The notes below the pieces were generated by a model. The model had not been told where the DNA came from, ran no database searches, and saw only the letters and a list, made by a program, of their open reading frames with translations. The translations under genes and the position numbers were made by a program. 39,415 nucleotides of DNA from a virus (lineage: Duplodnaviria > Heunggongvirae > Uroviricota > Caudoviricetes): the IMG/VR virus record IMGVR_UViG_2778261630_000006, positions 1 to 39,415 of that record, one strand, 5' to 3'. Below, piece after piece: positions 1 to 39,415 of this stretch. Numbering within the stretch: position 1 is the stretch's first letter; each line of letters begins with the position of its first letter.

Positions 1-288
1 CTACGATGCAAGAATCCATACCAATAAGCATCCGATAATTGGGAAAGAAAAATCCATCAGGCTTGCCACATCCCAAGCGCGCGGATCAAAACCGCCCCAC
101 CACGGCATATTCATTCGCTTGCCATGTCCGAACATTTCAATCCAGCGATATTCTGCCTGGGTATGTTCACGAGCGATGAAGAATGTACAACCGGCTATCG
201 CTCCGTAAGCCCAGTTTCCGGTAAAAAGACCAACCAGTACCTGTGCGACCACAGCGCAAAGTGCGTGATGAATTGGGGTTTTATCCAT
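1..288 (-). CDS. Hypothetical membrane protein, N-terminal part only; gene runs off the window start
   Basis: ATG at 286-288 directly abuts the tailspike stop (289-291). Hydrophobic segments in the translation. No homolog recognised. Confidence 0.4.
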   Translation of the reverse strand: MDKTPIHHALCAVVAQVLVGLFTGNWAYGAIAGCTFFIAREHTQAEYRWIEMFGHGKRMNMPWWGGFDPRAWDVASLMDFSFPIIGCLLVWILAS

Positions 289-2874
289 CTACTCTATCTC
301 TTTTGCTTTTTTAATTATCAATTCAAGCTCTGTTAAACGAGATTCAATACGTTCACACCTTCTTCGCTGGAATGCAGCCTCCAACCACAAACATTCATCT
401 GGACGCAATCCCCAACGCTCACCAGCATGTACAACCAGTTCCGTGTCACCAGTATCGTATTCTTCAAAGTATTCGTGAACGATGTCTTCTCCTTCAGGGG
501 ATTTAGCTATAAATGACACCTTGCGCTGTGCCATTACAGGTTGGTACTCATCATCCCATTTATCATGACATAGCAAGCCAAATCTTGTTCCATCTATCCC
601 CTTTGCAAGAAACGCATCTCTTACCTGCTGTGCAATTGCTCCGAAATGCCAACGAGCAGTATCCGAACCTTTAGCCTTAATATCGGACAACCACTGGTAA
701 ACGATAATATTTACGTCACCCCATGCGTCAAGAATTGCATCCTGATCCACCTCCATGATTTCTGAAAGTTGCTCTACTGTCAGTGGCTTTGTTTTCAATG
801 TCTGGTCTGAAGTATTTATTGCCCCATTAGTTGCATATACTTGCGTCCACCGTTTAGATGATGTCCCACATGATGACGTATTATCTTTATTAGCACTTAT
901 ATAGCCATTAACCTCCGCTGACTGACCGATATACGAATATGAAGATGTTGATAAGGGAGATTTAAATATCCATTGAGCATTGGTAAAGTCATAAATACCG
1001 GTATCACCTTTTTCACTAACATGAAAAGTTACATTCCGTAACGTATTCTTTGCATCATAACGGGCGGCTTGTGTTGTTGCCCTCGAAACAGTGAATCCTT
1101 TGTCATCAAGGTTTGCCTGCTCTATGACTTCACCACCAGGCATAATTTTACCAAGGCTTAACAAACCAGAGTTAGTGACAATATCATGGGTTGAATCAAT
1201 GATAATACCAGGCTGATTTCTTGATGTTGTTTTTACATGCATGACCTGTTGTGGCATTAATGTGTAAAATGTAGTTTCTCGCCCACTATCACCATCTGGT
1301 ATGCCATTTGTATTCCCCATTACAAGGTCATACCCACCTGCAATCATACGGAAAAACATTGCTTCTGGTTCATATGTAAGATTGCTAACATCTGGCGTTC
1401 CGGTATCATTTGGATCTGCTATTTCATAGGCTCTTCCTGCACCTGCCTGTATTTGCTGCACCCCAAGATAAACACCATCAAGTGTGTACTGATGCAAATA
1501 TTTTCTGGTTGAAGAATATGCAGATCCAGCCTGACAAAAATAAATAGCAGTACCGTCACACGCAACTGTTTGCATATCCCTCACAAAATCGGCAATTTCA
1601 AATTCAAAAGTTGCTTCATTACGATAATCGTAATTGTACGCCTGCGGGTTAATAAATTTGCTGGTATCAAATACTTTTACATAATAGCGAATTTGATCTG
1701 GTGTTGATGGGCTCTCACCAGGGCCAACATAACGTTTTGCTGTAGTAATCAGCCATCGACTCATAGGGTCGGTGCATAAAACATTTACCTGATTCTCGTA
1801 ACCATCTTCCCATATGAGAAAAAACTCTGGTTCAATTTCACCACCATCAGTAGGGGTGAATCTGGTGATATACTTTGCGCGATCCTCTCCTTTAGCTGTG
1901 CCAGCTAACCCCCATATCTGTAACTGGCCTCTTGTGTTACGAAAACCAACGCGCCCTATGGTTAAACCAAGACATTGATGTCCTAATTCTCTACTACCTT
2001 TAGTCTCCCAAAGAGGAGTTAACTCTTCATTCCCAAACCAATTATAAGCAACAACTTTATTAACTTCGTCACCAGAACTAACGCTGCCACTCACATTTAC
2101 CAAGCAATAAAGAACACTGTCATAATAATCAAGAACAGCACCCTGTATGACAGTATTTTTAATTGTTGCCAGTCGCAACCCTGACTTAACATGATTAGGA
2201 GTAGAAGGTCTGAAACCTGTATACATCCCCTTTTTTATAGTTTGTATTCTTTTTTCAGTAAAATCAGCATCTGGCAGTAATCGATTCTCTGTGCGAAAAT
2301 AGCCATTTATATACTTATTTCCATCAAAAACTTGATCTGTTATATATGTATTACCCCTTAGATCAACAATCCTTCCTGTGATTTGTTTTTCTAACTCTTG
2401 AAAAGATAATGTGTCATCGGTGATGCCATCACCTTTTGCTCCCCATCCGCGAGGGTCAGCGTCATCACGCCACCGAGACATCTGCAATTCATGATATTTT
2501 TTAGCACCTTCCGGGTCTTCTAATTGTTGTCTTAATTGGTCAGGATCGTACTTAAGCACATTCGGAAAATAGAACTGCTGCGTACCATATGCATCGTAAA
2601 CAGCCATAGAATGGCCTTGCACGGTAACGAATTTGGAAATCTGTCCGTTGTATACCGGGTATCCAGCAGCATTGATAACGATTGGCTGTGGCACCTGAAC
2701 ATAAGTACCATCTTCTCGTTCCAGATATACTGGAATCTGGTTTTCTGGATTTACCGGATCTGTGTCAATCTTACCGATATAAATTTTTCCATTTGCTACG
2801 GTTTTAAAAGAGCTAGCCATTGTGAAGAGTTGCGATGGCATACCTATCACAACATTTGGGGTTATATCAGGCAT
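289..2874 (-). CDS. Tailspike: P22 gp9-type head-binding N-terminus, pectate-lyase-like beta-helix body, C-terminal chaperone-like domain
   Basis: N-terminus MPDITPNVV...[21 protein letters not shown]...VLKYDPDQ matches the P22 tailspike N-domain. [11 protein letters not shown] motif downstream. C-terminal HFGAIAQQ segment. Start set at the second in-frame ATG (2874), which has an AGGA ribosome-binding site; the ORF extends in frame to 2967. Confidence 0.8.
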
Positions 2875-3216
2875 ATTAGTCATCCTGTTTGAAGATTTAG
2901 ATATTGAAGAAAACGGAATGACTGCAGACAAAGATGCAATTGTTTTGAAAAATAACCTTCTATTCATTTAAAAACCATGTAACATGAACAAAACGATTAT
3001 TTTACAATACTCAAGAATCTTGATCAACAGGCATATTATTTATGCGCTTAATGCGTCACTTACAAAAATAAAAACAAGTAATACCTTTATTCCTATCGTC
3101 CATGATTTTTATTTTCAAACATTATTAAATAACAATTCCCATTTATAATATCTGTCATTTAATTTGCTCCAGATACAAGGAATCTCCGCAGCATGGCTAC
3201 GGTGAATTTTGGGCAT

Positions 3217-3239
3217 AAAAAAACCCAGCCGAAGCTGGG
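3217..3239 (-). terminator. Rho-independent terminator downstream of ant
   Basis: Plus-strand cccagc-cgaa-gctggg preceded by a run of seven A (a T-run on the minus-strand transcript). Confidence 0.6.
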
Positions 3240-3258
3240 TCGTTGCGTTGGTTATCTG

Positions 3259-4137: not shown

Positions 4138-4205
4138 GTCAATATTTCCTAAGACGATTTGTTGATACCGAAGCCCTGACTGTTCCCGCAGTTGGGGCTT
4201 CAACT
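4138..4205 (+). ncRNA. sar: Candidate sar-like antisense RNA across the arc-ant intergenic region
   Basis: Extended -10 (TGcTATACT, 4123-4131) on the plus strand just inside ant; 13-bp hairpin with UUCC loop at 4170-4201 immediately after the arc stop. Ends not determined. Confidence 0.35.
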
Positions 4206-4367
4206 TTACGCGCCAATGCGTCCTTCCTTCTTAAAACTTTCCATTACTCTCTGATAAATCTCAGAGTTAACAGACCGACCATTCTCTTCCGCCACCTTGC
4301 GCACCAAATCCAATACTTCTTTAGGCCACCGCAAATTGAACTGCGGCATTTTGCTCATTCCTTTCAT
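4206..4367 (-). CDS. arc: Arc repressor (ribbon-helix-helix)
   Basis: Translation [53 protein letters not shown] is essentially P22 Arc. Confidence 0.92.
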
Positions 4368-4383
4368 ATTCACCTCACAATAT

Positions 4384-4400: not shown

Positions 4401-4409
4401 ATTGAGAAT

Positions 4410-4430
4410 ATAGTAGAGTGCTTCTATCAT
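4410..4430. promoter_or_regulatory. Arc operator (Oarc) overlapping Pant
   Basis: ATAGTAGAGTGCTTCTATCAT matches the P22 arc operator as recalled. Confidence 0.65.
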
Positions 4431-4457
4431 GTCAATACACTAACTTGGAGTGATGGC

Positions 4458-4712
4458 ATGGCTAGAGATGATCCGCACTTTAACTTCCGCATGCCTTTGG
4501 AAGTAAGAGAAAAATTAAAATACAGAGCAGAGTCAAACGGTAGATCAATGAACTCAGAATTGTTGCAAATCGTCCAAGATGCTCTATCGAGACCATCTCC
4601 TGTAAAAGGTTATCGCAATGAAGCTGAACGATTAGCCGAGATGCAGGCTGAACAGTTCAAGTCTGTGGTATTTGAGACACTTAAAAACATGTATGGCAAG
4701 GATGCAAAATGA
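4458..4712 (+). CDS. mnt: Mnt repressor (ribbon-helix-helix)
   Basis: Translation MARDDPHFNFRMPLEVREKLKYRAESNGRSMNSELLQIVQDAL... matches P22 Mnt. Confidence 0.9.
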   Translation: MARDDPHFNFRMPLEVREKLKYRAESNGRSMNSELLQIVQDALSRPSPVKGYRNEAERLAEMQAEQFKSVVFETLKNMYGKDAK

Positions 4713-5290
4713 TCGATTACAACCCAGCAAAAAAAGAAGTCATTGCAGCTAAAAAGTGCCTAGAGCAGATGAAATCATCTACAAACCATGATGATTTTGA
4801 AATGCACTGGCGAGAATGTCTTGGGCATATAGAAAAGTCTTTCAGTAAGTTGCTCTGTGCAACAAAGCCGGTTAGTGGAAAATTTAGCAGCCACTTCAAC
4901 CAAAAGTTCATGCTTAGAAAAACAGACAAAACCCTTGCTTACCTTCACCAAGCAAGAAATGCTGATCATCATTCCACTATGGAAATCTCAAAACTTGAAC
5001 CTCCTTATACTACTCTTGGGGCATTTCCGGGAGCAAGAAGCCATTATATTAAAGAGTTAATCATTGATTCAACAGGTAAAATAGCAAAATACGAAGGCGA
5101 CCCTATGATAGTTGAGTTTCATCCAGCAACAACTATGCCTATAACCGTAAGAAACCAAGGCAAAGATTATCCACCTCCAACAGAACATCTTGGCGAAAAG
5201 CTTGTTGATATACATCCATCTGTTCTTGCCTATCTCGGTATACAATTTTATGAAAAATGGATAGATGAGTCGTGTGCAACGTTTAGATAG
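4709..5290 (+). CDS. Hypothetical protein, translationally coupled to mnt
   Basis: ATGA overlap with the mnt stop. 193-codon ORF in an AT-rich segment. No family recognised. Confidence 0.6.
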   Translation: MIDYNPAKKEVIAAKKCLEQMKSSTNHDDFEMHWRECLGHIEKSFSKLLCATKPVSGKFSSHFNQKFMLRKTDKTLAYLHQARNADHHSTMEISKLEPPYTTLGAFPGARSHYIKELIIDSTGKIAKYEGDPMIVEFHPATTMPITVRNQGKDYPPPTEHLGEKLVDIHPSVLAYLGIQFYEKWIDESCATFR

Positions 5291-5457: not shown

Positions 5458-5519
5458 TTCGCATATCCTATCGTGACAAAGTAACTAGAAAAACTAAAGA
5501 GGTTGGTGTGTCTGATTCT

Positions 5520-6002
5520 ATGAGTTACGCTGTGCTAGTTGCCGCAACTCTATTTATTGGGATAGGGTTGCAGATTGCGTGGTTCTTTTTCTCTAGTTTT
5601 ATTAAACGCAAAAGAATTGAATCAAGGATATCTGAGATTTCTATTGCTATAGGGAAAAATGCTGAAAATTCAGAGAATGAGGCCTGCGCACTGAATTACC
5701 TTAAAGAAAAGTTTTCCCCTGAAAAATTTGAAAATAGAATTACTGATGCTCTTGGATTGGTAATATCAGTAATTCATATGCCACTAAGTTTGCTGATAAC
5801 AGTGTGGTACTTCGCCATGATCGCCGGAAGAATATTTGGCTTCATGAATATAGAGCCTGTAGTTCTTTGGGTTCCAATGATACTGCAACTGTTGTTAAGC
5901 GTTGCTATCTTTATTTTTTCTGTTTTTATAAAAATTGTCTTTGGAAGATACCCCGGAGAAGCGAAGGGATTTAATAAAGAATTCATAAAAACTATAAAAT
6001 AA
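5520..6002 (+). CDS. Inner-membrane protein at the position of P22 sieA; candidate superinfection exclusion protein
   Basis: About 160 aa with an N-terminal transmembrane segment and a C-terminal hydrophobic cluster. Sits between gp16 and mnt. Start is ATG 5520 or upstream GTG 5508 (AGAGG ribosome-binding site). Confidence 0.55.
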
Positions 6003-6024: not shown

Positions 6025-7866
6025 CTACTGCCGGGTCGCTTCGTTAGCTAAGAGCGGGCGCACGGCAGTAGCCGCCTGATTTAGCGCTCTTTCATAGGCT
6101 GGTGTTCCTGCTTTGGTGTTTGCCAGACGTAAGAGCGCATTCCTTGCTGCTTTGGACTCATACAAACGCATCATTGCACCAAAACCAGCCTCAAGCCCCA
6201 TTGATACGCCAAGAGTCGCGGTTGCGCCAATCGTCCTTATCCTGTTGGCTTGCGATTGCCCCGTCTGAGTTACTACATTTGCGGTGTCTGACCTTGCTGT
6301 TTGCTGTAGAACTTCATGAAGAGCATCAAGCTCTTTCATATGCTTTCCAGAAAAAATAGTGTTGTAAATTTCACCACCTGACTGAGATTTCAGCTTATTA
6401 ACTTCAGTGATGAACTTGGCTGGAGAGTCACCGGCCTTTTCCGCTATTTTGCTGACGTAAGCTGCACGCATAGCATCTTTACCCTTATCATCCAATGCGC
6501 TCCAGATTCGTTTCACGTCAGATGGTTTTCTGCTTAATACAACGGTATTTATAAGTTCAGGGCTGGCTTCACTACTTGCCTTATTGAGCTTGTTAGCAAT
6601 GTTTTTATTAAGCACCTTATTATAAACGTTTGCATAATCGGAATTTGCTTTAAGGTATTTTGCTGCGTCTGATGCACCGAGGTTTTTAGCAACTGCGTTA
6701 CGAAGATCTTTTGACATTGCATTCTCTACCATATTGGTAGCTGCTTTTGCCTGGTTGGGGAAGACCATAGCATCTCCCTGAACATTAGATCGAAATGCTG
6801 TTCTGTGCTGACGCAAGAGATCAAACGTAACCTCCAAATCAGTTGCAGGGTTTGCTAATTCTTCACGTAGGTTACGTAAGGATGTAAGCAGGCTTTGATT
6901 GGCAGACGTCCCAAGCCGTTCCTGTCTTGCGATCGCTGTATTCAGAGCATTCATGGTATTTGTGGTATCAACTGCGGCATTACCCATTTTATTGGTGACG
7001 TCATTGATAACAGCGCCAGCGGCATCCTTCCGACCCCTTAACGTGGTGGTCAGAGATTTCACCACATCATCCGGGTTGTACTCACCAAAACGGTCAAAAT
7101 AATTACTTACCAACTTACTACGCGTTGCATATTGCTCCGCTCGCTTTGAGCCTGTCCCGAGCAAAGCCCCCTCGGCATCCTGAGTAAGGCCGCGAGTGAA
7201 AGCATTTTTCGGCGGGATAACATCAGATGTCATTGGTGTCACGCCCATCGATTCTGAGGTGGCAATTTTTTTCGCTACTTCTGGCGCGATATCGCCTTTT
7301 ATAGCCGTTATTCCACGCCCTATTCCCTTTGCTGCTGCGGAAAGAACACCCTGAGCGGCAAGGTTAACTCCGGCGTTTATGGCTGCATTTTGCGCGAAAT
7401 CACCTTTCTGGTTTGCGGCTTCTGCCAGTGATCCAATAGCCATGTTTCCTGCCGTTCCAACTCCTGGAACTAAATACCCGCCAATTGTTTCTCCAGCTTG
7501 CGCATAAGGGTCTGTTGGTCGATCTACTGGACGATAGACATCGTCCAAAACCTTGGGGCCACCAAGCCCCTGGCTGATTGCATTAATCAGACTTGCGCCA
7601 CCCTGCAATACGTCAAATGGTATGTTTACCAGACCACGACCAGCCTGTTCTGCAATTTGCCCTGCACTTTGACCACCAGTGAGCCAATCGCCAGCTTGTT
7701 GCATCAATGATGGTTCTTCACGTGCTGGTTCATTATTGACCTGATTAACTGTTTGTTGCTGAACAGCCTGACCAGCAAAATACTCATCAATGGCGGTGCC
7801 AATATCTTCCGTGCTCGTACCATCAGGGAAGGTAAATGTCTTACCGTTTGCAGTTACTTTCATCAT
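6025..7866 (-). CDS. gp16: Ejection (internal virion) protein, P22 gp16-like
   Basis: 613 aa at the gp16 position of the P22 late gene order. Confidence 0.8.
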
Positions 7867-9242
7867 TCCACCGTAAATTGAATGCCTGATTTTGACGTGT
7901 AGCTACCTCCTGCTGATTGCTGAGTAGCTGGCTGTTGCCTTGATGATTTCTTCCCGCCATTACCGACATTAACGTTATATTGCTGGTTGTAATTGTCGGT
8001 ATATTGCTGAATGTCGCGCATTGATTGTTGCAGTGCTTCAGGGCTTGAGAAATCAACCTGTGGCATACCTTGAAAATACATTTTTGCTTCTGCAACGGTG
8101 TTGATACCGGATGCCCCCATGTCTCTGGCTGCTGCAATGCCCTGATTCTGCATCTTTCCTTGGATTCGCTGTGCAGCGTTGTATAGTTTCCTCTGATCAC
8201 CACCAGATGCACGGCTACGAATATCTGCACCAAGAGCAGGAGAACCTGAAGAGCCTGTAATGCCAGTCATGAAGCCAAGATCGTCAATTGATGCACCAGA
8301 AATTGCATCAAGATCTTTCTTCATTGCGTAATTCTGCGCGCTTGCTGCCGATGTAGCCGGAGCGGCAATAGAGCCAGCAGGAACGCGAACCATATTCCCC
8401 TCGTTGTCGATACCTTCGTAGAACGCATTAGCCCCAGCGCCGTGAAGCTTCCCGCCTACCGTTACAGTTCTGCCATCTGCTAACTGAACTGTACGCTCAT
8501 TATTCCCAACCGCCCCTTTCATTGATGCTCTCTGCATCGATAAATCCTGACCGCGCATCGTGATATTCTGACCACGCGCTGTTAGCGCCTCGCCAGCCTG
8601 ATTGCTGCGGATTGTCTCTGCCAGTCTGCCTCGGTCAATCTCACGACCAGCTATCTTGTCCTGAACAGCAAACGCCTTTTCTGGTCCAAGCGCACCGAGA
8701 GACATAGTAGTCAGCATGTGTGATAGCTGCTCTGGATTCTGAATACCTGTCTGAATCATCCAGTCAGCATTCGCACCCACGCGATTTAACCTGTCCTTGT
8801 TGTCAGTAATGAATTTACTGTAGGCTTCCGGTCCCTGAGAAAGAGCGACGTTAGCCCTCATGGCTAAATCGCCCATATCGTTGCGTTGCTGCTCATTAAG
8901 ACCGGAAAACGCCTGTTGTGCCTGTGCAACAAACGCTGGATTTTCCTGGGCAAACTTAAATAGTCCCGATGGATCACCAGAAGCCCATGCATCAGCGTGA
9001 ACCTTATTGAACGCCCTAATAGCTTTCTGTTGCTGTTCCTGCTTATAAATATCAGCAACTCCAGCCAGACCACGTAACGCGGTCAGACCAACGTTATTTG
9101 CACCTGATCGAGCCAGTTCATTGTTTTCGCGGATCAGACCAAGCGTTGCGTTAATGTCGCTTGCCTTTGGCGCATTCTCATTTTGCGCACCGATGCCAGC
9201 AAGAAACCCACCAGAATTAATACCCTGTTGCCACGTAGCCAT
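7863..9242 (-). CDS. gp20: Ejection protein, P22 gp20-like
   Basis: 459 aa, Gly/Ala/Gln-rich, at the gp20 position. Confidence 0.8.
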
Positions 9243-9252
9243 TGATTACCCC

Positions 9253-25111: not shown

Positions 25112-25113
25112 TG

Positions 25114-29977: not shown

Positions 29978-30094
29978 ATGCCCTCCATAGTAACCATGAA
30001 ACAATAATACGATATGTACTTTTAGAATGCAAACAAAAAATACATCTTGTGCATGGATGGTTTTAGTACAGAGCGTAATAATAAGGGTATGAAA
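29978..30094. promoter_or_regulatory. Right operator region with divergent PR and PRM
   Basis: Three related 15-bp dyad sites (30006-30020, 30039-30053, 30065-79), consensus A(G/A)TACA-N3-(C/T)GT. Minus-strand PR candidate TTGCAT-17-TATTAT (30004-30032) overlaps site one. Confidence 0.55.
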
Positions 30095-30778: not shown

Positions 30779-30808
30779 AACCCGACCTTAGCGTCGGGTT
30801 TTCTTTTT
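30779..30808 (+). terminator. Rho-independent terminator after cI
   Basis: AACCCGAC-CTTAGC-GTCGGGTT hairpin followed by TTCTTTTT. Confidence 0.7.
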
Positions 30809-30827: not shown

Positions 30828-30903
30828 AATACAAAGTGTTATAAAAAACCAATTATATTTAGAACATTTTGTATTGACTCGATAAAGTACAAATCGTACT
30901 ATT
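30828..30903. promoter_or_regulatory. Left operator and pL
   Basis: Plus-strand TTGACT (30874-79), 17-bp spacer, TACTAT (30897-30902). Dyad AGTACAAATCGTACT (30886-30900) overlaps the -10; related site at 30828-30842. Confidence 0.55.
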
Positions 30904-30942: not shown

Positions 30943-30972
30943 GCTCTTAAAAATTAAGCCCTGAAGAAGGGC
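30943..30972 (+). promoter_or_regulatory. nutL (boxA and boxB)
   Basis: CGCTCTTAAAAATTAAGCCCTGAAGAAGGGC, the lambda nutL arrangement. Confidence 0.75.
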
Positions 30973-31082: not shown

Positions 31083-31409
31083 ATGGATGCACAAACACGC
31101 CGCCGCGAACGTCGCGCAGAGAAACAGGCTCAATGGAAAGCAGCAAATCCCCTGTTGGTTGGGGTAAGCGCAAAACCAGTTAACCGCCCTATTCTCTCGC
31201 TGAATCGCAAACCGAAATCACGAGTAGAAAGCGCACTGAATCCGATAGACCTTACGGTGCTGGCTGAATACCACGAACAGATTGAAAGCAACCTGCAACG
31301 TATTGAGCGCAAGAATCAGCGCACATGGTACAGCAAGCCACGCAGTGAAATGGGCGTGACTTGTGTTGGTCGCCAGAAAATGAAATTAGGCAGCAAACCA
31401 CTTATTTGA
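31083..31409 (+). CDS. N: Antiterminator N
   Basis: MDAQTRRRERRAEKQAQWKAANPLLVGVSAKPVNRPILSLNRKPKSRVESALNPIDLTVLAEYH... matches lambda N (Arg-rich motif). Confidence 0.95.
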   Translation: MDAQTRRRERRAEKQAQWKAANPLLVGVSAKPVNRPILSLNRKPKSRVESALNPIDLTVLAEYHEQIESNLQRIERKNQRTWYSKPRSEMGVTCVGRQKMKLGSKPLI

Positions 31410-31420: not shown

Positions 31421-32044
31421 ATGTCATCAATCCGCTTAACAACGAGTATGAAAGAGAAAATCGCTCGTAACGCTTTAATTAAATCTGGGGTTTTCACTGA
31501 GCTTGAAGAAGTAACAAAGTTAAAGAACCAGCTTGCACTTGACGCCAGAGTTGTTGTGTTTGGCGGTAAAAAGAAAACTGAGGAAGTGGATCAGTTATCA
31601 TCCAAGTTAATGGCTATAAGCGAAGAACTTGAAAAGCTGGGATGTTCATTTTACTCATGCGATGCCCGTTCAACTTCAATTTATCTGACTGTATCTGGCA
31701 GAAGGGTTGGCTGGTATTCATATGGGAAAGACGGCAACGGCGAAGATATATTGCTCCCTACTCCGACCAAAGATAAATGCATGTTTAGCGCAGAACACGA
31801 AATAACAAAAAGGTTTGATGAAATCTGCGCATTGCAACAAAAACTTGAAGCCAAGAAAAAGGATATCGAATCAAATGTATGGGCTGCTTTGAACTCAGTC
31901 ACAACAGTTAAGCGACTTATTGAAGTTTGGCCTGAAAGCAAAGAGTTGCTACCAAAAGAAGCAGATAAAGCAAGTACAGCACTTCCTGCTTTACGGGTAG
32001 AAGATTTGAATAAGATGATTGGACTTCCTTCCGAGGTCGCATAA
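31421..32044 (+). CDS. Hypothetical protein (207 aa) immediately downstream of N; AT-rich accessory gene
   Basis: GAGAGGA ribosome-binding site and ATG 12 nt after the N stop. No family recognised. Confidence 0.6.
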   Translation: MSSIRLTTSMKEKIARNALIKSGVFTELEEVTKLKNQLALDARVVVFGGKKKTEEVDQLSSKLMAISEELEKLGCSFYSCDARSTSIYLTVSGRRVGWYSYGKDGNGEDILLPTPTKDKCMFSAEHEITKRFDEICALQQKLEAKKKDIESNVWAALNSVTTVKRLIEVWPESKELLPKEADKASTALPALRVEDLNKMIGLPSEVA

Positions 32045-32268: not shown

Positions 32269-32439
32269 ATGCAACAGTTCGCTATTGCAGGGGCGGCATC
32301 GGTTCGCCCTTTCAACCCGATTTTATCGGTGCAGCATTCACGAAAAAACATTTTAACCGGAGCAGACTTTAAACAACCAAGAATGAAAAGCTTGCTCGAA
32401 AAGATTTGGGATATTTTGAAACAACAAGGCCGTCCATGA
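32269..32439 (+). CDS. cIII: CIII-like protein
   Basis: MQQFAIAG...SLLEKIWDILKQQGRP resembles lambda CIII. GAAGGAG ribosome-binding site. Confidence 0.65.
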   Translation: MQQFAIAGAASVRPFNPILSVQHSRKNILTGADFKQPRMKSLLEKIWDILKQQGRP

Positions 32440-32594
32440 GTTTTACAGATAACTGGTCAGACGAAGAATTCATTCGTCAGATGAAAGAATTAATCGGTAA
32501 CGAAGGAGATATTCATGTCACTTGCAACCACAGTGAAGGAGAGCAAGTTACAGAGACGCATGTACACGCAGAAAGCTCTCTGGTATCGCCATAA
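32436..32594 (+). CDS. Small ORF (52 aa), kil-like by position
   Basis: ATGA overlap with the cIII stop; acidic small protein. Identity not established. Confidence 0.35.
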   Translation: MSFTDNWSDEEFIRQMKELIGNEGDIHVTCNHSEGEQVTETHVHAESSLVSP

Positions 32595-32695
32595 TGGCGA
32601 CCGCGAAGGAATGCGGGTATGTCTTAATTTGTCCCGAGTCGAAGTATTAAATCAGCGTTATTTCCTTGGGTCATGTCCATTCTGAGAACAATCAT

Positions 32696-33301
32696 ATGAG
32701 CAAAGAATTTTACGCAAGACTGGCAGCTATTCAGGAGAATCTGAACGCGCCAAAGAATCAGTACAACTCATTCGGTAAATATAAATACAGAAGCTGCGAA
32801 GATATTCTTGAAGGCGTTAAGCCGTTACTGAATGGCCTGTTTTTATCAATCAGCGATGAAGTTGTGTTGATTGGTGATCGGTATTATGTGAAAGCCACGG
32901 CAACTATTACCGATGGCGAAAACAGTCATACGGCAACCGCTCTTGCACGAGAGGAAGAAAGCAAGAAAGGAATGGATTCTGCACAAGTTACGGGAGCTAC
33001 AAGCTCTTATGCACGCAAGTATTGCCTCAATGGTTTGTTCGGCATTGATGATGCGAAAGATGCAGATACCGACGAGCATAAACATCAGCAGAACGCAGCA
33101 GCAAAGCAATCAAAACCATCACCTACACCTGAACAGGTTCTAAAAGCATTCACTGACGCAGCAATGCAGAAAAACACCGTAGAAGAGCTTAAACAGGCGT
33201 TCGCCAAAGCGTGGAAGATGCTCGAAGGTACACCGGAGCAGCACAAAGCGCAGGACGTTTACAACATCAGACGAGACGAATTAGAAGGGGCAACTGCTTA
33301 A
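32696..33301 (+). CDS. erf: Erf single-strand annealing protein
   Basis: MSKEFYARLAAIQENLNAPKNQYNSFGKYKYRSCEDILEGVKPLL... matches P22 Erf. Confidence 0.92.
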   Translation: MSKEFYARLAAIQENLNAPKNQYNSFGKYKYRSCEDILEGVKPLLNGLFLSISDEVVLIGDRYYVKATATITDGENSHTATALAREEESKKGMDSAQVTGATSSYARKYCLNGLFGIDDAKDADTDEHKHQQNAAAKQSKPSPTPEQVLKAFTDAAMQKNTVEELKQAFAKAWKMLEGTPEQHKAQDVYNIRRDELEGATA

Positions 33302-33684
33302 TGGCACACTCGATTACTGTAAGACTAAACAGGCCAGCAAGAGAGTTTCAGGCCGGGGAAAATATCGGATTCAATATCCGTGCTGGCGTTCAGTATTACG
33401 ATCGCCAGACAAAAAAGAAAGAATGGACAAACTACAGCGCCGTTGTATTTGCCAAGCCGGGAGCGCAAGCGGATTACTACCGTAGTATTCTTGTTGAAGG
33501 TGGCATTGTAGAAATTACCGGAGAAAACATCAGGGTTGATGTTTATCAGGGGCAAAATGGTCAATCAATCACTCTTGAATTACTGAATGCAAAGATTGGA
33601 TTTGCAACATCAGGAAACTGCCAACAGCAACAAAGTAGCAATCATCAAAATCATCCTGAATACGATGATTCAATTCCCTTCTAA
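33301..33684 (+). CDS. Phage single-stranded DNA-binding protein
   Basis: About 127 aa; Gln-rich tail ending DDSIPF, a typical SSB acidic tip. TAATG overlap with erf. Confidence 0.7.
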   Translation: MAHSITVRLNRPAREFQAGENIGFNIRAGVQYYDRQTKKKEWTNYSAVVFAKPGAQADYYRSILVEGGIVEITGENIRVDVYQGQNGQSITLELLNAKIGFATSGNCQQQQSSNHQNHPEYDDSIPF

Positions 33685-33707: not shown

Positions 33708-34001
33708 ATGCCAGCGCCTATGTATGGTGCGGATGACCCGCGCCGCTGTTCCGGCAAATCAGTATCGGAGGTGCTGGATAAATTCAGAAAAAACTACGAC
33801 CTGATAATGTCGCTACCGCAGGAAACGAAAGAGGAAAAGGAATTTCGTCATTGTATATGGCTTGCAGAGAAAGAAGAACGCGAGCGAATTTACCAGACAT
33901 CAATCCGACCATTCCGTAAAGCCACATATACCCACTTCCCTGAAATCGACCCGCGCCTGCGTAATTACCGCTCACGCTATGGCGCTATCAGTAATAACTG
34001 A
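33708..34001 (+). CDS. Hypothetical protein (97 aa), Abc2-like by position
   Basis: AAGGA ribosome-binding site. Anti-RecBCD role is suggested only by position next to erf. Confidence 0.35.
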
Positions 34002-34011: not shown

Positions 34012-34176
34012 ATGAGAGGACTTGCATACAATCCCGGCATTCTTCCTGCAGAAATGATTATTCGCCAACGCGTAAAGCCAATGCCATCGAGAGAGGAATT
34101 GCTTAAGAGAAATTCTTTTCCTTCAGTGAATCAAAACAAATATCTGAATGCGATGTGGCGGAGTGGGAAGAAATGA
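34012..34176 (+). CDS. Small ORF (54 aa)
   Basis: GAGGAA ribosome-binding site then ATG; stop overlaps the next start. Confidence 0.4.
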
Positions 34177-34607
34177 AACAAATGACACTAATTGAGATGG
34201 ATGGATTTCTGAAAGGTAAATGCATCCCACGAGATTTAAAGGTTAACGAAACAAACGCTGAATATCTGGTGCGTAAATTTGCTGAACTTGAAGCTAAATG
34301 CGCGGCGCTGGCTGCGGAGAATGCAAGGCTGAAGAAGTTCTGCAAAGACGCTGCATTCGATGCCGATTACGAAGCAGAGCTAGGTATGGAGAGAGGTGGA
34401 TTCAGTGATGCACTTAACGAAATCAAAACCCCGGCCACCGACGCATTCCTGGCTGAAGTGCGGGCGCAGGGATTGGAGATGTTTGCACAGAAATGTAACT
34501 CAAAATCCGAACAGTCGCTTGCATCTGATATACGCGATAACTGGAAACTACTCGGTGAGCATGCGACTGACTTTGCCGCAGAGCTTCGCAAAGGAGGCAA
34601 CCAGTGA
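34173..34607 (+). CDS. Hypothetical protein (144 aa), helical
   Basis: ATGA coupling with the upstream ORF; no family recognised. Confidence 0.5.
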
Positions 34608-35089
34608 CTGGACATGCAGCAATCCTCGACATGTACTGTGGCAGTCGCATGTTCTGGTTCGATAAGAATGACGACCGGGCGATATTTAGCGATATCAGAA
34701 AGGAAGAGCACACATTGTGTGATGGACGACGCCTGATTATCAGTCCTGACCTGATAGCTGATTTTCGTGCACTACCATTTGCAGACGCATCCTTTTCGAT
34801 GGTTGTATTCGACCCTCCGCATCTTGAGCGTGTTGGTGATAACGCCTGGATGGGAAAGAAATATGGACGGCTGAATAAAGATACCTGGCGTGATGATTTA
34901 CGGCAGGGATTCAAAGAAGCCTTTCGTGTGTTGTGGCCATACGGCGTTCTGATTTTTAAATGGAATGAAACGCAAATACCTGTTCGCCAGATATTGGCAC
35001 TGACCGACAGAAAGCCTGTTATCGGTCAACGAACAGGAAAGGGTGACAAGACCCACTGGATTATTTTTATGAAGGAGGGCAACCAGTGA
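34604..35089 (+). CDS. Small SAM-dependent methyltransferase-like protein (GTG start)
   Basis: Motif I-like ILDMYCGSR near the N-terminus and motif IV-like VVFDPPH. Only 161 aa, so no obvious target-recognition domain. Confidence 0.5.
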   Translation: MTGHAAILDMYCGSRMFWFDKNDDRAIFSDIRKEEHTLCDGRRLIISPDLIADFRALPFADASFSMVVFDPPHLERVGDNAWMGKKYGRLNKDTWRDDLRQGFKEAFRVLWPYGVLIFKWNETQIPVRQILALTDRKPVIGQRTGKGDKTHWIIFMKEGNQ

Positions 35090-35727
35090 GCGAGATTGAT
35101 TATCAGGCGCTACGGGAACGTTATTCACCTAAGCCAGTACCTGAATGCTCTGTTTGTGGCGAGGAAATGTCAATACAGCGTATATCTGGAGCACATGTCA
35201 CTTATGCCTGCTCCAGTTATGGTGGTGATGGAGATTTCAAAATTGGTCGAACACTTGCCGACGAGCATTATGAAAAATCACGCGTAACAGTAGTTGATGA
35301 CAGTGACCCTGATGTAATTGCACTACTGGACGAACTGGAGGCAGCAAAATCAAAACTCAACGAGCAGCGTGAGTATTACGAAGGTGTTATCTCGGATGGG
35401 AGTAAGCGCATTGCTGAACTGGAGAAAAGCGAAGAGCAACTCATTAATGAGCGTGACCATGCTGAGTCTGCTTTAGCTGTTATGTACTTTGCAGCAACCG
35501 GGGATAGGCCTGAGTGGAGCAACTGGTTCGGCTTTTCTGATGCCGTTGATGCCGTGGTTGACAGAATTGCTGATTTAGAAGCCAAACAGCCATCGCCAGT
35601 AGTACCGGAAGAAAAACCAATGCCTAACCCTCTTAGCATGTACGCGGTTGATGCTGTTGCCGCTATTGCAGAGGTGAGAGGCTGGAACGCCTGCCGTGCC
35701 GCTATGCTTCAGGGGAAAGGAGAGTGA
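35086..35727 (+). CDS. Ead/Ea22-like early protein
   Basis: Acidic coiled-coil middle and C-terminal AAMLQGKGE tail shared with the 35937-36386 gene. Confidence 0.5.
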   Translation: MSEIDYQALRERYSPKPVPECSVCGEEMSIQRISGAHVTYACSSYGGDGDFKIGRTLADEHYEKSRVTVVDDSDPDVIALLDELEAAKSKLNEQREYYEGVISDGSKRIAELEKSEEQLINERDHAESALAVMYFAATGDRPEWSNWFGFSDAVDAVVDRIADLEAKQPSPVVPEEKPMPNPLSMYAVDAVAAIAEVRGWNACRAAMLQGKGE

Positions 35728-35728
35728 T

Positions 35729-35926
35729 ATGGACAAAAACACACCTGCTTACTGGAGTTTATCACTTGATACTGAATGCCCAAAATGCGGTCACAATTTC
35801 GATCTGCTTTGTGATGCTGATTTCTGGGAGTTTTCTGGAGCTAAACAGGCATGTGAAGAAATAAAAGGTTACGAAACATGCTGTCCAGAATGTAACCATG
35901 AATTTAAAACAGATTTTGTGTATTGA
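35729..35926 (+). CDS. Small zinc-ribbon protein (65 aa)
   Basis: Two CxxC pairs (CPKCGH ... CCPECNH). Confidence 0.5.
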   Translation: MDKNTPAYWSLSLDTECPKCGHNFDLLCDADFWEFSGAKQACEEIKGYETCCPECNHEFKTDFVY

Positions 35927-35936
35927 GGCATAACGA

Positions 35937-36386
35937 ATGACCACTTTTACTAAAGAACAATTAATAGAGATGATTAAGCGCAATATAACGGTTATGGATC
36001 GTTATCCTGATTTAGTAACTGCACAAATGGATCTGGAAGTATACAAAATTGCGCTGGCATCGCTGGAAGCAGAGCCAGTTGCTTATATTTTCAAACATCC
36101 GGCTGGGAAATTATTCTGGGCTTTAACGGATGAAAGCAATAAAGAGCAATCGGACGTTATTCCTGTTTATGCTGCCGCGCCTGCGTCGGTTGTGCCGGAT
36201 AATGCATCAGAGTCTCTTGCTTATGCTTACAAAGAGCTTACGCCTGAGATTATGCGCGGTCATATCGCTGTATTCGAGCGATACGGAATAGCCCCAAACG
36301 ATAGCACTACCACAATTCAGGCACTGCGAATCGCGCTGGATGGTATAGAGCGGAGCGACGCCATGCTTCAGGGTAAAGGAGGGTGA
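35937..36386 (+). CDS. Ead/Ea22-like early protein (paralog)
   Basis: Shares the LASLEAEPV segment and C-terminal DAMLQGKGG tail with neighbours. Confidence 0.5.
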   Translation: MTTFTKEQLIEMIKRNITVMDRYPDLVTAQMDLEVYKIALASLEAEPVAYIFKHPAGKLFWALTDESNKEQSDVIPVYAAAPASVVPDNASESLAYAYKELTPEIMRGHIAVFERYGIAPNDSTTTIQALRIALDGIERSDAMLQGKGG

Positions 36387-36387
36387 T

Positions 36388-36597
36388 ATGGCTATTGCCG
36401 CAAGTTACACCATGCATCTCTATTGTGACTGCCGCCAGTGTACGGAAGGTGTATATCCAGTGCCAGACTTCGGTGAATATATCGGTACGTCATGGGCTGG
36501 CTGTGCAAAAGAGGCCCGTAAAGACGGGTGGCGAATAAGTAAAGACAAAACACGTGCTTTTGCGCCCGGGCATAAAGTTTTGAGGATTAACAAATGA
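36388..36597 (+). CDS. Small Cys-rich hypothetical protein (69 aa)
   Basis: ATG 1 nt after the upstream stop; CDCRQC motif. Confidence 0.45.
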   Translation: MAIAASYTMHLYCDCRQCTEGVYPVPDFGEYIGTSWAGCAKEARKDGWRISKDKTRAFAPGHKVLRINK

Positions 36598-37511
36598 CCA
36601 CTATTACCAGAGAACAGGCACAGAAAATTATTGAAGCAGCCGATGAGGTTATTAGTGCGCTGGCCGGAACTAATGAGGATGTTCACCCTGGTAGCGATAA
36701 CATGCTACGTCTGTGGGATGACCTGAATGACCGTCACGCGCCCCCTGAAGTTGTGCGTGAGTTGGCACGAATTGTGCTGGCATCGCTGGAAGCAGAGCCT
36801 GTTCTGTATCAGTCCTGCACTCGCCCCACCTGGAATAGCGGTGTTCCGTGGACGGAATGGAAAGAACGAAGTCGTGAGTGCTACGAAGACGATTTGCGCT
36901 TTACAGACACGCCTGACCATGCCGGTTGGATATACAAATGTCGAAAACTATATACCAATCCGCCAGCGCCGATAGCGTTGGAGGCCATTGAAAACGCAAT
37001 TGAATACATCCGCAGTATCGCTTTCCACATCGATGAAGACGATTACCACGGCAAACATATTGCGTATTTCATGCGACAAGCATTGGCCTGGCTGGAAGGG
37101 CATTCATGCAGCGACGACAGACTGGGTAAAGCCGATAATCAACCAGTACGCGGCAACCAGGCTGCCGAATCCAATCGCGGTAATGAGTGGACCGGCAATC
37201 CTGATATTGATAACGCCATCATCATGCTCGATCGCATAGATACGCTGGAAAGTTGCGATGATGACCGTATTGAGGCTGTTAAGGCTGTTTTGCGTAGACT
37301 GGCTGGCAACTCTCCGGTAACTCCGGATGATTGGATAAGCTGTAGTGAGCGAATGCCCGCTCAAGATGATTGGATTTTAATTTATTCAAAGCACGGCGAG
37401 TATATGGCAGGACAGGTACAAGGGGAATACGTGGAGTTGAGCGACGGCACTTTATCGTGGTTAGGGAACGCCTTGTTCTGGATGCCGCTACCAGAACCGC
37501 CTCAGGGGTGA
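36594..37511 (+). CDS. DUF551-type early protein with Ea22-like N-terminal segment
   Basis: C-terminal ERMPAQDDWILIY...WMPLPEPPQG is DUF551-like; N-terminal LASLEAEPV repeat shared with 35937-36386. Confidence 0.55.
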   Translation: MTTITREQAQKIIEAADEVISALAGTNEDVHPGSDNMLRLWDDLNDRHAPPEVVRELARIVLASLEAEPVLYQSCTRPTWNSGVPWTEWKERSRECYEDDLRFTDTPDHAGWIYKCRKLYTNPPAPIALEAIENAIEYIRSIAFHIDEDDYHGKHIAYFMRQALAWLEGHSCSDDRLGKADNQPVRGNQAAESNRGNEWTGNPDIDNAIIMLDRIDTLESCDDDRIEAVKAVLRRLAGNSPVTPDDWISCSERMPAQDDWILIYSKHGEYMAGQVQGEYVELSDGTLSWLGNALFWMPLPEPPQG

Positions 37512-37577
37512 AATGATGCTTGGCCTGAAGTATTTTATGTAATTGGTATTGCTATATTTTTATCTGGGGATAAACGA

Positions 37578-37820
37578 ATGTTCTCTCTGATTCAACGTGG
37601 TCAGATATACACCGATAGCGCTGGCTATCCAGTAAAAATCATTCGTAGTACTGATCACTCAGTATTCTTCAAGAGGATGGATGGCTATCCTGGAAGGGTG
37701 TGCATCAGAAAATTCAATAATTTATTCGAACACATTGATCACAGAGAATATCACCAGATCCTGGCTGAAACAGAGCAGGAGAACCATCTGAAAAAATTAC
37801 GTGCCATGCAAAGGAGATAA
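37578..37820 (+). CDS. Hypothetical small protein (80 aa)
   Basis: Stand-alone ORF after an AT-rich interval; no family recognised with confidence. Confidence 0.45.
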   Translation: MFSLIQRGQIYTDSAGYPVKIIRSTDHSVFFKRMDGYPGRVCIRKFNNLFEHIDHREYHQILAETEQENHLKKLRAMQRR

Positions 37821-37925: not shown

Positions 37926-37928
37926 ATA

Positions 37929-38096
37929 GAGATGATAAATGCACTTCCGAGTCACAGGTGAATGGAATGGAGAGCCATTCAACAGAGTTATCGAAGCAGA
38001 GAACATCAATGACTGCTATGACCACTGGATGATATGGGCGCAGATAGCACATGCAGAAGTAACCAATATTCGAATTGAAGGACTGAAAGAACACCA
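37929..38096 (+). CDS. Small ORF (55 aa) upstream of xis
   Basis: MHFRVTGEWNGEPFNRVIEAENINDCYDHWMIWAQIAHAEVTNIRIEGLKEHQAA; not in the ORF track (under 60 aa). Weak ribosome-binding site. A CCGCC-TGAT-GGCGG hairpin plus T-run overlaps its stop. Confidence 0.35.
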
Positions 38097-38145
38097 AGCC
38101 GCCTGATGGCGGTTTTCTCTTGCGTGTAATTGCGGAGACTTTGCG

Positions 38146-38364
38146 ATGTACTTAACACTTCAGGAGTGGAACGCACGCCAGCGGCGCCCAAGAAGCCTTG
38201 AAACAGTTCGTCGATGGGTACGCGAGTGCAGGATATTCCCTCCTCCGGTTAAGGATGGAAGAGAGTATCTGTTCCACGAATCAGCGGTAAAGGTTGACTT
38301 AAATCAACCAGTAACAGGTAGCCTTTTGAAGAGGATCAGAAATGGGAAGAAGGCGAAGTCATGA
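38146..38364 (+). CDS. xis: Excisionase
   Basis: MYLTLQEWNARQRRPRSLETVRRWVRECRIFPPPVKDGREYLFHESAVKVDLN... matches lambda Xis. Confidence 0.95.
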   Translation: MYLTLQEWNARQRRPRSLETVRRWVRECRIFPPPVKDGREYLFHESAVKVDLNQPVTGSLLKRIRNGKKAKS

Positions 38365-39415
38365 GCGCCGGGATTTACCCCCTAACCTTTATATAAGAAA
38401 CAATGGATATTACTGCTACAGGGACCCAAGGACGGGTAAAGAGTTTGGATTAGGCAGAGACAGGAGGATAGCAATTACTGAAGCAATACAGGCCAATATT
38501 GAGTTACTCTCAGACAGCGGACGCAAATCACTGATAGACAGAATTAAAGGCGGTGACGCAATCACTCTTCATGTGTGGCTTAACCGATATGAAAGAATCC
38601 TCACCGAAAGGGGGATCAGGCCGAAAACTCTACTCGACTACGCCAGCAAAATCAGGGCAATCCGAAGAAAATTGCCGGACAAACCGCTCACTGACATATC
38701 AACGAAAGAAGTGGCAGCAATGCTAAACACCTACGTAGCAGAAGGTAAAGCAGCTTCCGCAAAATTAATCAGGTCAACCCTTGTTGACGTTTTTCGTGAA
38801 GCAATAGCCGAGGGGCATGTGGCAACGAATCCGGTAACAGCAACCCGTACAGCAAAGTCAGAAGTAAGGCGCTCAAGGCTGACAGCTAATGAGTATGTCG
38901 AGATTTACCATGCAGCCGAACCTCTCCCTATCTGGCTAAGGCTGGCGATGGATTTGGCCGTCGTTACAGGGCAGAGAGTCGGCGATTTGTGCAGAATGAA
39001 ATGGTCAGACATAAACGACAACCATCTTCACATTGAACAGAGTAAAACAGGGGCTAAACTCGCCATTCCGCTAACGCTAACGATTGACGCGCTCAATATC
39101 TCATTGGCTGATACACTACAGAAATGCAGGGAGGCCAGCAGCAGTGAAACTATAATCGCATCAAAGCATCACGATCCACTTTCCCCGAAAACAGTATCAA
39201 AGTATTTTACAAAGGCGAGAAATGCATCTGGACTCTCATTTGATGGAAACCCGCCAACATTCCATGAACTGCGTAGCCTGTCAGCGAGGCTATACCGGAA
39301 CCAGATTGGCGATAAGTTTGCTCAACGTCTTCTCGGGCATAAATCAGATTCAATGGCGGCGCGGTATAGGGACAGCCGTGGACGGGAATGGGACAAAATT
39401 GAAATCGACAAATGA
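38342..39415 (+). CDS. int: Tyrosine integrase, lambda Int family
   Basis: MGRRRSHERRDLPPNLYIRNNGYYCYRDPRTGKEFGLGRDRRIAITEAIQANIEL... and C-terminal HELRSLSARLY...LLGHKSDSMAARYRD match lambda Int; overlaps xis as in lambda. Stop is the last base of the window. Confidence 0.95.
   Translation: MGRRRSHERRDLPPNLYIRNNGYYCYRDPRTGKEFGLGRDRRIAITEAIQANIELLSDSGRKSLIDRIKGGDAITLHVWLNRYERILTERGIRPKTLLDYASKIRAIRRKLPDKPLTDISTKEVAAMLNTYVAEGKAASAKLIRSTLVDVFREAIAEGHVATNPVTATRTAKSEVRRSRLTANEYVEIYHAAEPLPIWLRLAMDLAVVTGQRVGDLCRMKWSDINDNHLHIEQSKTGAKLAIPLTLTIDALNISLADTLQKCREASSSETIIASKHHDPLSPKTVSKYFTKARNASGLSFDGNPPTFHELRSLSARLYRNQIGDKFAQRLLGHKSDSMAARYRDSRGREWDKIEIDK

Follow-up and report, generated by a model that had tools for sequence, protein, structure and literature searches.

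The 39,415 bp of viral DNA analysed here (IMG/VR record IMGVR_UViG_2778261630_000006, positions 1 to 39,415, the whole stretch being called the window below; 47% G+C) very probably hold all the genes of a single temperate phage that appears to be functional, a P22-like (Lederbergvirus-type) lambdoid short-tailed phage that is integrated as a prophage between torT and torS. To judge from the sequence, its modules are of lambda, HK022, P22, Shiga toxin (Stx)-phage and ES18/mEp043 types, which is ordinary lambdoid mosaicism, and the combination of these modules appears in no member of the phage collection that we searched; the kind of phage seems already well described. The P22-like pattern consists of colinear virion genes, a mosaic early region exchanged with lambdoid phages, a lambda-identical Q and a hypervariable ant region (PMC2629481). 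The value of the element is as a clean, fully annotated example of a described pattern, and current understanding is unchanged by it.

For gene assignment, every open reading frame (ORF) of at least 35 amino acids (aa) was compared by blastp with the proteins in the lambda and P22 annotations, the ORFs left over were scanned against Pfam, PHROGs and PADLOC, and RNAs were sought with Rfam. The resulting 62 gene models are all open, none is broken and together they make 92% of the window coding (Table 1). An earlier note on this DNA had proposed that lambda genes for control, lysis and integration are combined here with P22 immI, recombination and virion modules. All the gene classes that it named are present at the expected place and in the expected orientation (blastp, Pfam/PHROG and Rfam), the homologies that it proposed did not prove wrong for many genes, and the aa identities of 60-100% over about 45 proteins are far beyond chance.

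The virion genes follow the P22 order 3-2-1-8-5-(orf69)-4-10-26-14-7-20-16-sieA-mnt-arc-ant-9, complete, colinear and read on the minus strand. Within this order, the cluster 3-2-1-8-5-4-10-26-14-7-20-16 is represented by all 12 of its genes in sequence, each at full length relative to P22 and with 60-100% identity. The claim of a complete packaging and virion set in P22 order holds for order and length but has to be qualified for the tailspike, which carries a gp9-type N-terminal head-binding domain and shares only aa 1-113 with P22 gp9 (70% identity). The packaging and procapsid proteins are of P22 sequence type, their identity to those of HK620, Sf6 and CUS-3 being 40% or less, or undetectable. 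The proteins gp1, gp2, gp4, gp5 and gp8 are 98-100% identical to those of the coliphages APC_JM3.2 and Dewey, gp3 is 100% identical to that of APC_JM3.2 and 82% to that of Dewey, and gp10, gp26, gp14 and gp7 are nearest to HK620 and CUS-3 (93-99%). Gene 3 is far closer to P22 (98.6% identical DNA) than are the flanking virion genes (only about 78%), which suggests a recent exchange of this packaging-specificity gene. It contains a 22-mer, GAAGATTTATCTGAAGTCGTTA, equal to the P22 sequence at the same offset, which is presumably the P22 pac site, 2 of its 22 positions differing from the expected pac string.

Because identities to lambda lie at 91-99.5% for N, CII, Q, S, R, NinB and Xis and int is 96% identical to that of HK022, the element might be read as a long-tailed phage of lambda or HK022 kind that had acquired a few P22 genes. 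However, lambda aligns to only 15% of the window (at 90.6% identity), none of this being lambda head or tail genes, nothing in positions 1-20,000 aligns to HK022, no virion gene of lambda or HK022 was matched in the window, and all 19 kb of the late region are taken up by podovirus genes in P22 order. The gene content excludes a long-tailed phage of lambda or HK022 type, and we give this reading practically no credence.

The site of integration was recovered from the source contig, NLTD01000002.1 of GCA_002232835.1 (an Escherichia genome), to which exact searches with the proteins of orf95 and int both led and in which the window occupies positions 140475-179889 of 434 kb, with 0 mismatches over its leftmost 6288 nucleotides (nt) and its rightmost 11074 nt. 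Window position 1 is the final base of the stop codon of orf95, a minus-strand ORF of 95 aa downstream of the tailspike gene, and the last codon is the TGA of int, so that int does lie on the plus strand at the far right with the prophage reversed, as the earlier note had read it. Beyond the ends of the window, the contig continues on the left with torT, torR, torC and torA and on the right with torS, yccM and gnsA. An identical attachment (att) core of 11 bp, TTCACCTAAAG, common to HK022 attP and to the K-12 torS-torT spacer, is duplicated at the two junctions: the attL core begins 74 nt past the int stop codon, to the right of the window and adjoining torS, and the attR core ends 288 nt before window position 1, adjoining torT. 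A search for this core through the whole window found no copy, and both att sites lie outside it as had been claimed; from core to core, the prophage measures about 39.8 kb. The attR core is followed by about 200 bp with 89% identity to the HK022 P arm (203 nt), including a sib-like hairpin. Int has the arm-binding, core-binding and catalytic domains (PF09003, Arm-DNA-bind_1; PF02899; PF00589), and the proposed lambda-type integration is right as to the Int family but not as to the site, which is the HK022 attB at torS-torT and not gal-bio. The H63 prophage was dropped as an integration model, its Int having lambda specificity and adjoining ybhC, and int loci of HK022 type were used instead.

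An HK022-Int prophage is present at the HK022 attB in about 5% of Escherichia coli genomes, and 73 bp separate the int stop codon from the junction in such prophages (PMC6814406). In HK022 lysogens, a promoter in this 73-bp P' arm drives transcription of torS, and insertion of HK022 at attB raises torS transcription and abolishes the bet-hedging of trimethylamine N-oxide (TMAO) respiration (PMC6814406). As the prophage occupies this attB, the source strain may show the same torS/TMAO bet-hedging phenotype, and the P' arm promoter, which lies shortly beyond the window, probably increases transcription of torS in the lysogen. Two facts speak against this effect, namely that the 73 bases running from the int stop codon up to the junction differ from HK022 at several places and that the position of the torS-driving promoter falls outside the window.

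The juxtaposition of early genes resembling lambda and HK022 with late genes resembling P22 could also have arisen in silico, by an assembly artefact joining two halves, or could reflect two adjacent elements. The source is a draft assembly, and neither the phage collection nor the 5,426 complete E. coli genomes contain a record that by itself covers at least 80% of either half of the window. Against this, the element sits inside the 434-kb contig, where ordinary host DNA flanks it left and right and either end has one att core matching the other; 2 samples are listed for this contig, and the genes form one canonical lambdoid order with no module duplicated. Moreover, the joint between Q-S-R-Rz and the P22-type gene 3 recurs in E. 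coli A3 at 99%, and the block of cro/cI, O-like gene and primase-helicase gene recurs in 720R6, also at 99%. We consider an artefact or a pair of elements extremely unlikely.

The early genes are in the lambdoid order int-xis-ea-recombination-N-cI-cro-cII-replication-nin-Q-lysis. Antitermination is of the lambda N/nut type, since N does not differ from lambda N over residues 1-64, in which the arginine-rich motif lies, and both boxB sequences are exact and at their expected positions, GCCCTGAAAAAGGGC in nutR (0 chance matches expected) and GCCCTGAAGAAGGGC in nutL; the sequence CGCTCTTAA that precedes the nutL boxB is presumably the lambda boxA. Late control is likewise of the lambda Q/qut type, with a lambda-type Q, a pR' promoter, a qut-like site and a terminator downstream. 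Over cII, nutR and the pRE box, the DNA matches lambda 38247-38693 at 98% identity. The CII-box pattern TTGCN6TTGC taken by itself is not significant (5 found for 3.4 expected), and only the three boxes at lambda-equivalent positions were counted, which are those at pRE (TTGCGTTTGTTTGC), at pI (TTGCGTGTAATTGC) and within Q; this last box we take to be paQ by its position, by comparison with lambda.

The immunity core is not that of lambda. By blastp against the lambda and P22 proteins, Cro has no match, and cI is 71% identical to lambda cI from residue 26 onwards, its DNA resembling lambda at 30338-30742 only, in the part for the C-terminal cleavage domain; its DNA-binding domain is not that of lambda. 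From cro to the N-terminal segment of cI the DNA has 99.8% identity with that of 720R6, 683R2 and Dewey, and Stx phages such as VT2-Sakai and Nil2 reach 94%. Six copies of the motif ARTACAN4GT occur in the window, all of them within OR and OL, three between cro and cI and three upstream of pL, which is weak evidence that they may be operators, as the motif was derived by eye from these same sites, which makes the count circular in part. Scanning for palindromes gave no information on the operators. With N/nut, CII and Q, the lambda control of the earlier note is confirmed; with this core it is not. In its list of lambda-type proteins, Xis, N, CII, Q, S, R and NinB are correctly placed, whereas Int is of HK022 type (96.4% against 75% to lambda) and Rz, NinE and NinF are nearer to P22.

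A second immunity region of P22 type, immI, has mnt divergent from arc-ant and sar RNA between arc and ant, this RNA being the sole match in the window to Rfam at gathering thresholds. The P22-type Erf (75%), Mnt (79%), Arc (98%), C-terminal half of Ant (85%) and sar RNA were all found. Ant is a chimera in which a Bro-N half precedes the C-terminal half of P22 Ant, and, beside sar, a promoter-like site lies at 4103-4131. The position of sieA, between genes 16 and 9, is as described (PMC10883804).

Replication, to which the earlier note had not referred, is of neither the lambda O/P nor the P22 18/12 type. Only the N-terminal half of the O-like initiator resembles O or gp18 (45-49%; lambda O 49%), its gene has iteron-like repeats at 28738-28779, and its partner is a Toprim/DnaB-like fusion protein. 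In this primase-helicase, AAA_25 is barely above cut-off and DnaB_C, at 23.9 bits, is below its 27-bit cut-off; the DNA is 99% identical to 720R6 and 95% to mEp043.

The virion genes being of full length, all gene models being open and the att pair being present, the prophage looks intact. It might nevertheless be a defective (cryptic) prophage that only looks complete, with inactivating point changes in essential genes or cis sites, and that neither excises nor yields virions. Many E. coli prophages are defective, in the related A3 prophage the coat gene is frameshifted and Arc is a pseudogene, the primase-helicase is split in the record of 720R6 (a related Lederbergvirus), and the window itself lacks kil and has a divergent cIII-like gene. 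On the other side, all 62 gene models are open and of full length relative to their homologues, gp1, gp2, gp5 and gp8 are 98-100% identical to those of the isolated, plaque-forming APC_JM3.2 and Dewey, and attL and attR each have an intact core and arms that are both close to HK022 (attR P arm 89%, 203 nt). Nothing in the sequence suggests a defective prophage, and we regard this alternative as very unlikely.

Several points do weigh against an apparently functional P22-like phage. Inducibility and particle formation are predictions from the sequence, and inactivating point mutations are possible behind open gene models. The candidate operators come from a motif drawn from the same sites. The cIII-like gene shares its N-terminus with lambda and P22 CIII and has a rearranged central helix. 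Neither kil, ral, sieB nor abc1 was found in the early-left operon or elsewhere in the window; these are accessory genes. Finally, the centre of the tailspike is without a characterised homologue that would point to the receptor.

In such a phage, the regulatory steps, which we infer from near-identity to studied components, would be as follows. The LexA-like cI would hold pL and pR off via OL and OR and would be cleaved after DNA damage; N and the nut sites would then antiterminate early transcription, followed by Q and qut for late transcription, and CII would act at pRE, pI and paQ to bring about establishment. As a second layer, Mnt of immI would keep Ant off in the lysogen, together with Arc and sar, and SieA would exclude other P22-like phages (PMC10883804). 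Recombination would be supplied by Erf and Abc2, replication would start via the O-like initiator with the primase-helicase of the phage itself, and the DNA would be packaged by headful from a P22-type pac. S, R, Rz and Rz1 would lyse the cell and Int and Xis would excise the element at torS-torT. The tailspike, predicted to attach to the virion through its P22-type head-binding domain, carries a different receptor-binding body.

The whole-genome alignment that the earlier note had proposed (lambda, P22, HK620, Sf6 and CUS-3) shows the mosaic pattern. Besides lambda, the references align to the following shares of the window: P22 50% (at 80.5% identity), HK620 24%, Sf6 21-22%, CUS-3 30%, HK022 21.5%, 720R6 40%, mEp043 27% (20 kb of its genome compared), APC_JM3.2 48%, Dewey 45% and the E. 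coli A3 prophage 61% (at 97.7%). Jointly, lambda, P22, HK620, Sf6, CUS-3 and HK022 cover 69% of the window and all eleven references 91%, the unmatched remainder being the N-terminal half of Ant, orf193, orf130 and parts of the ea region. The product of coverage and identity is about 40% for P22, 46% for APC_JM3.2 and 60% for the A3 prophage, and accepted members of Lederbergvirus have 16-45% among themselves; on this measure the window is as near to them as they are to each other, a comparison to which no numeric genus threshold is applicable.

P22 has the same order in the late region and immI, an identical gp3, the sar RNA and similar SieA, Arc, Mnt, Abc2, Erf and Rz proteins, but differs in Int, immunity (c2/cro), antiterminator (gp24), replication (18/12), endolysin (gp19) and tailspike body, and where P22 Ant has its own N-terminal half the window has the Bro-N domain; P22 gtrABC and gene 17 are absent from the window. 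P22 Int is thrW-specific (PMC2629481). The A3 prophage shares an identical tailspike, orf95 and the whole virion set with the window but differs in int, immunity and replication module. At 99%, 720R6 has cro/cI and cII as well as the genes for the O-like protein and the primase-helicase in common with the window and differs in having head genes of CUS-3 type, an Int of lambda specificity at gal-bio and an endosialidase-type tailspike; APC_JM3.2 and Dewey differ from the window in their tailspikes, integrases and early-left genes. None of these four carries the whole module combination of the window. The A3 and M21816 prophages of E. coli and 720R6 each have tRNA-Thr and tRNA-Asn, unlike the window, in which a tRNA scan found none.

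HK022 agrees with the window in Int, Xis, att core and P arm with its sib-like hairpin, and its DNA from Q to Rz is 96% identical; it is a long-tailed phage with HK97-type head genes and other replication and immunity genes, and it uses Nun instead of N. Lambda has N, both boxB, CII with its three boxes, Q, pR', S, R, NinB, Xis and orf55 as in the window (91-99.5%), whereas its virion genes, O/P, exo/bet/gam and rexAB are absent from the window and its cro, cI N-terminal domain and Int specificity are different. In mEp043, the O-like initiator, the DUF2740 gene and the 626-aa Toprim/DnaB-like protein stand in the same order with 95% identical DNA, and its gp55 is annotated in the record as similar to ES18 gp61; this phage belongs to the genus Aguilavirus and has other virion genes, Int and immunity.

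Table 1. Genes, RNA and control sites of the prophage by window position, with the matches on which each assignment rests (percentages are identities).
Feature	Position	Strand	Match or sequence
orf95, small hydrophobic protein	1..288	-	phrog_1443 5.8e-55
tailspike, 861 aa	289..2874	-	PF09008 4.5e-61 (head-binding), PF13884 4.5e-10 (S74 chaperone); PF12218 below cut-off
terminator-like hairpin after ant	3222..3241	-	
ant antirepressor, 292 aa	3259..4137	-	85% to P22 Ant residues 130-300; PF02498, PF10548; gene call in source contig
sar antisense RNA of immI	4139..4205	+	Rfam RF00262, 73.4 bits, E 1.3e-13; antisense to arc-ant spacer
arc	4206..4367	-	98% to P22 Arc
divergent overlapping promoters Pant and Pmnt	4402..4435	- (Pant), + (Pmnt)	Pant TTGACA-17-TATATT (11/12 matches); Pmnt TTGAGA-17-TATCAT
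mnt	4458..4712	+	79% to P22 Mnt
orf193, variable region between mnt and sieA	4709..5290	+	phrog_23516 1.4e-119 (uncharacterised)
sieA, superinfection exclusion type A	5508..6002 (ORF reaches 5436, start uncertain)	+	91% to P22 SieA over 164 aa
gp16 ejection protein	6025..7866	-	76% to P22 gp16, full length
gp20 ejection protein	7863..9242	-	83% to P22 gp20
gp7 ejection protein	9253..9945	-	86% to P22 gp7
gp14	9948..10403	-	90% to P22 gp14
gp26 tail needle	10403..11104	-	60% to P22; 93-96% to HK620, CUS-3
gp10	11104..12522	-	93% to P22; 99% to HK620, Sf6
gp4	12523..13023	-	60% to P22 gp4
orf69-like small gene	13001..13231	-	33% to P22 ORF69; phrog_1175
gp5 coat protein	13276..14571	-	73% to P22 gp5; 98% to APC_JM3.2, Dewey
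gp8 scaffolding protein	14571..15482	-	85% to P22 gp8
gp1 portal	15496..17661	-	78% to P22 gp1
gp2 large terminase	17662..19161	-	92% to P22 gp2
gp3 small terminase	19139..19627	-	protein 100% to P22 gp3; DNA 482/489 identical
pac-like 22-mer inside gene 3	19339..19360	-	GAAGATTTATCTGAAGTCGTTA
gp49/Sf6 gene 66 family protein	19651..20049	-	PF13876 8.1e-35
KilA-N domain protein	20338..20859	-	PF04383 8.2e-22
Rz i-spanin, P22 gp15 type	21061..21498	-	89% to P22 gp15, 60% to lambda Rz
Rz1 o-spanin within Rz	21114..21299	-	lipobox LGVSGC; 43% to lambda Rz1
R endolysin, lambda type	21495..21971	-	97.5% to lambda R
S holin/antiholin, dual start (MKM)	21955..22278	-	99% to lambda S107
tR'-like terminator	22607-22579	-	13-bp stem
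qut-like site	22663-22643	-	2 positions off string annotated in mEp043
late promoter pR'	22669-22641	-	TTGACT-17-TAAATT
Q late antiterminator	22712..23335	-	99.5% to lambda Q
CII box within Q	23035..23048	+	TTGCN6TTGC; position expected for paQ
ninH	23332..23520	-	54-57% to lambda and P22 NinH
rusA Holliday-junction resolvase	23517..23879	-	PF05866
ybcO-family nuclease	23876..24166	-	PF07102 1.8e-44
orf130	24159..24551	-	phrog_2638; no Pfam match
ninF	24541..24720	-	93% to P22, 87% to lambda
ninX-like gene (start uncertain)	24713..25153	-	40% to P22 NinX; PF10765
ninE	25114..25290	-	96.5% to P22, 91% to lambda
Dam-family DNA N6-adenine methyltransferase	25287..25832	-	PF05869 2.7e-64
ninB	25811..26251	-	99% to lambda NinB
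bifunctional primase-helicase (Toprim + DnaB-like), 626 aa	26329..28209	-	PF13155 above cut-off; phrog_239 1.5e-171
O-like replication initiator	28317..29177	-	PF04492 1.6e-37
DUF2740 small gene, P22 orf48 homologue	29170..29316	-	85% to P22 ORF48
cII	29349..29642	-	98% to lambda CII
CII box at expected pRE position	29620..29633	+	TTGCGTTTGTTTGC
nutR boxB	29722..29736	-	GCCCTGAAAAAGGGC
cro, 71 aa, HTH_3 type	29762..29977	-	PF01381
pR-like promoter	30033-30004	-	promoter scan
three candidate OR operators, between cro and cI	30009..30076		ARTACAN4GT
cI repressor, 231 aa, LexA-like	30053..30748	+	HTH_3 PF01381, Peptidase_S24 PF00717
terminator after cI	30779..30800	+	
three candidate OL operators and pL	30828..30902	+ (pL)	pL TTGACT-17-TACTAT, 30874-30902
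nutL boxB	30958..30972	+	GCCCTGAAGAAGGGC
N antiterminator	31083..31409	+	91% to lambda N
Nmad5-domain gene, directly after N	31421..32044	+	PF18757 1.8e-70
divergent cIII-like gene	32269..32439	+	phrog_550 2.2e-21; N-terminal MQ.AIAG as in lambda, P22 CIII
two small overlapping ORFs (Sf6 genes 30, 29 / HK97 gp42 homologues)	32436..32685	+	phrog_2123, phrog_1723
erf single-strand annealing protein	32696..33301	+	75% to P22 Erf; PF04404 in source gene call
orf127, in place of P22 abc1	33301..33684	+	phrog_44 (single-strand DNA binding protein), partial, 5e-27; no Pfam match
abc2 anti-RecBCD	33708..34001	+	94% to P22 Abc2
ea region	34012..37820	+	DUF2737, orf144 (Eae-like), orf65, orf149, orf69, DUF4222
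ea-region methyltransferase	34604-35089	+	phrog_954
Ead/Ea22	35086-35727	+	
DUF551 gene	36594-37511	+	
lambda orf55 homologue	37939..38106	+	96%
CII box at expected pI position, just upstream of xis	38120..38133	+	TTGCGTGTAATTGC
xis	38146..38364	+	97% to lambda Xis, 98.6% to HK022
int, lambda family, HK022 specificity	38342..39415	+	96.4% to HK022 Int, 75% to lambda Int

The tailspike is chimeric and has three parts, a P22/CUS-3-type head-binding end with an endosialidase-like N-extension (aa 1-197), a centre of about 460 aa and a C-terminal S74 self-cleaving chaperone domain. Its identity to the CUS-3 endosialidase is 69% for aa 1-197 and 35% for aa 656-851, and the chains of the P22 and Sf6 tailspikes in the PDB match its aa 1-118. 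The centre has no relative among eight reference tailspikes or in the PDB, a sequence search of which gave chance-level antibody matches only (E at least 0.2), and single-sequence AlphaFold2 gave an unusable model of it (mean predicted local distance difference test, pLDDT, of 31).

The ATG of orf95 abuts the tailspike stop codon, and orf95 has no match in Pfam or PADLOC; it could be a lysogenic-conversion or exclusion gene. The tailspike is found at 99% or more in 14 of the 5,426 complete E. coli genomes, and orf95 accompanies it in each of the 10 contigs listed, which represent at least three sites of integration (argW/intS, torT and one more). It is conceivable, if on the whole unlikely, that the tailspike centre and the membrane-protein gene orf95 form an undescribed receptor-specificity cassette, in which a new glycan-degrading fold or specificity would be coupled to an exclusion or surface-modification partner and which would move as a unit between P22-like prophages with at least three integration sites. 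E. coli A3 (NZ_CP028771.1) has this tailspike and orf95 at two chromosomal loci, at about 1.63 Mb and about 2.52 Mb, so that it has two P22-like prophages with the same receptor specificity; in the A3 prophage near thrS, the coat gene is frameshifted.

Between mnt and sieA, orf193 occupies the position of the hypervariable "ant moron" region; it has no match in Pfam or PADLOC and none in the 11 reference genomes. In the early-left operon, the Nmad5 gene lies in a stretch to which APC_JM3.2 aligns at 95% DNA identity and in which it has an equally long gene annotated "Smchd1"; Dhillonvirus can escape the Tmn defence system through a point mutation of nmad5 (PMC11846954). The ea region is the least conserved part of the window. 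A PADLOC search with ten accessory or uncharacterised proteins returned nothing credible, its one match being KilA-N to PDC-S22 (1.2e-05), with no stretch passing alone. The tailspike body, orf95, orf193, the Nmad5 gene and the two methyltransferases are candidates for counter-defence, exclusion or host-range functions. Of these two DNA methyltransferase genes, the one of Dam family lies in the nin region on the minus strand and the one with the phrog_954 match in the ea region on the plus strand, and an anti-restriction function is possible for both. In the nin region, a start of the ninX-like gene at 25117 was rejected, as this is not a start codon.

The gene of the gp49 family and the KilA-N gene are placed between Rz and gene 3. 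The non-coding stretch of about 130 bp between the two (20083-20218) is found with 91-96% identity in P22, HK620, Sf6, CUS-3 and HK022; it is conserved although the flanking genes differ and looks like what the records of Sf6 and CUS-3 label as "boundary sequences".

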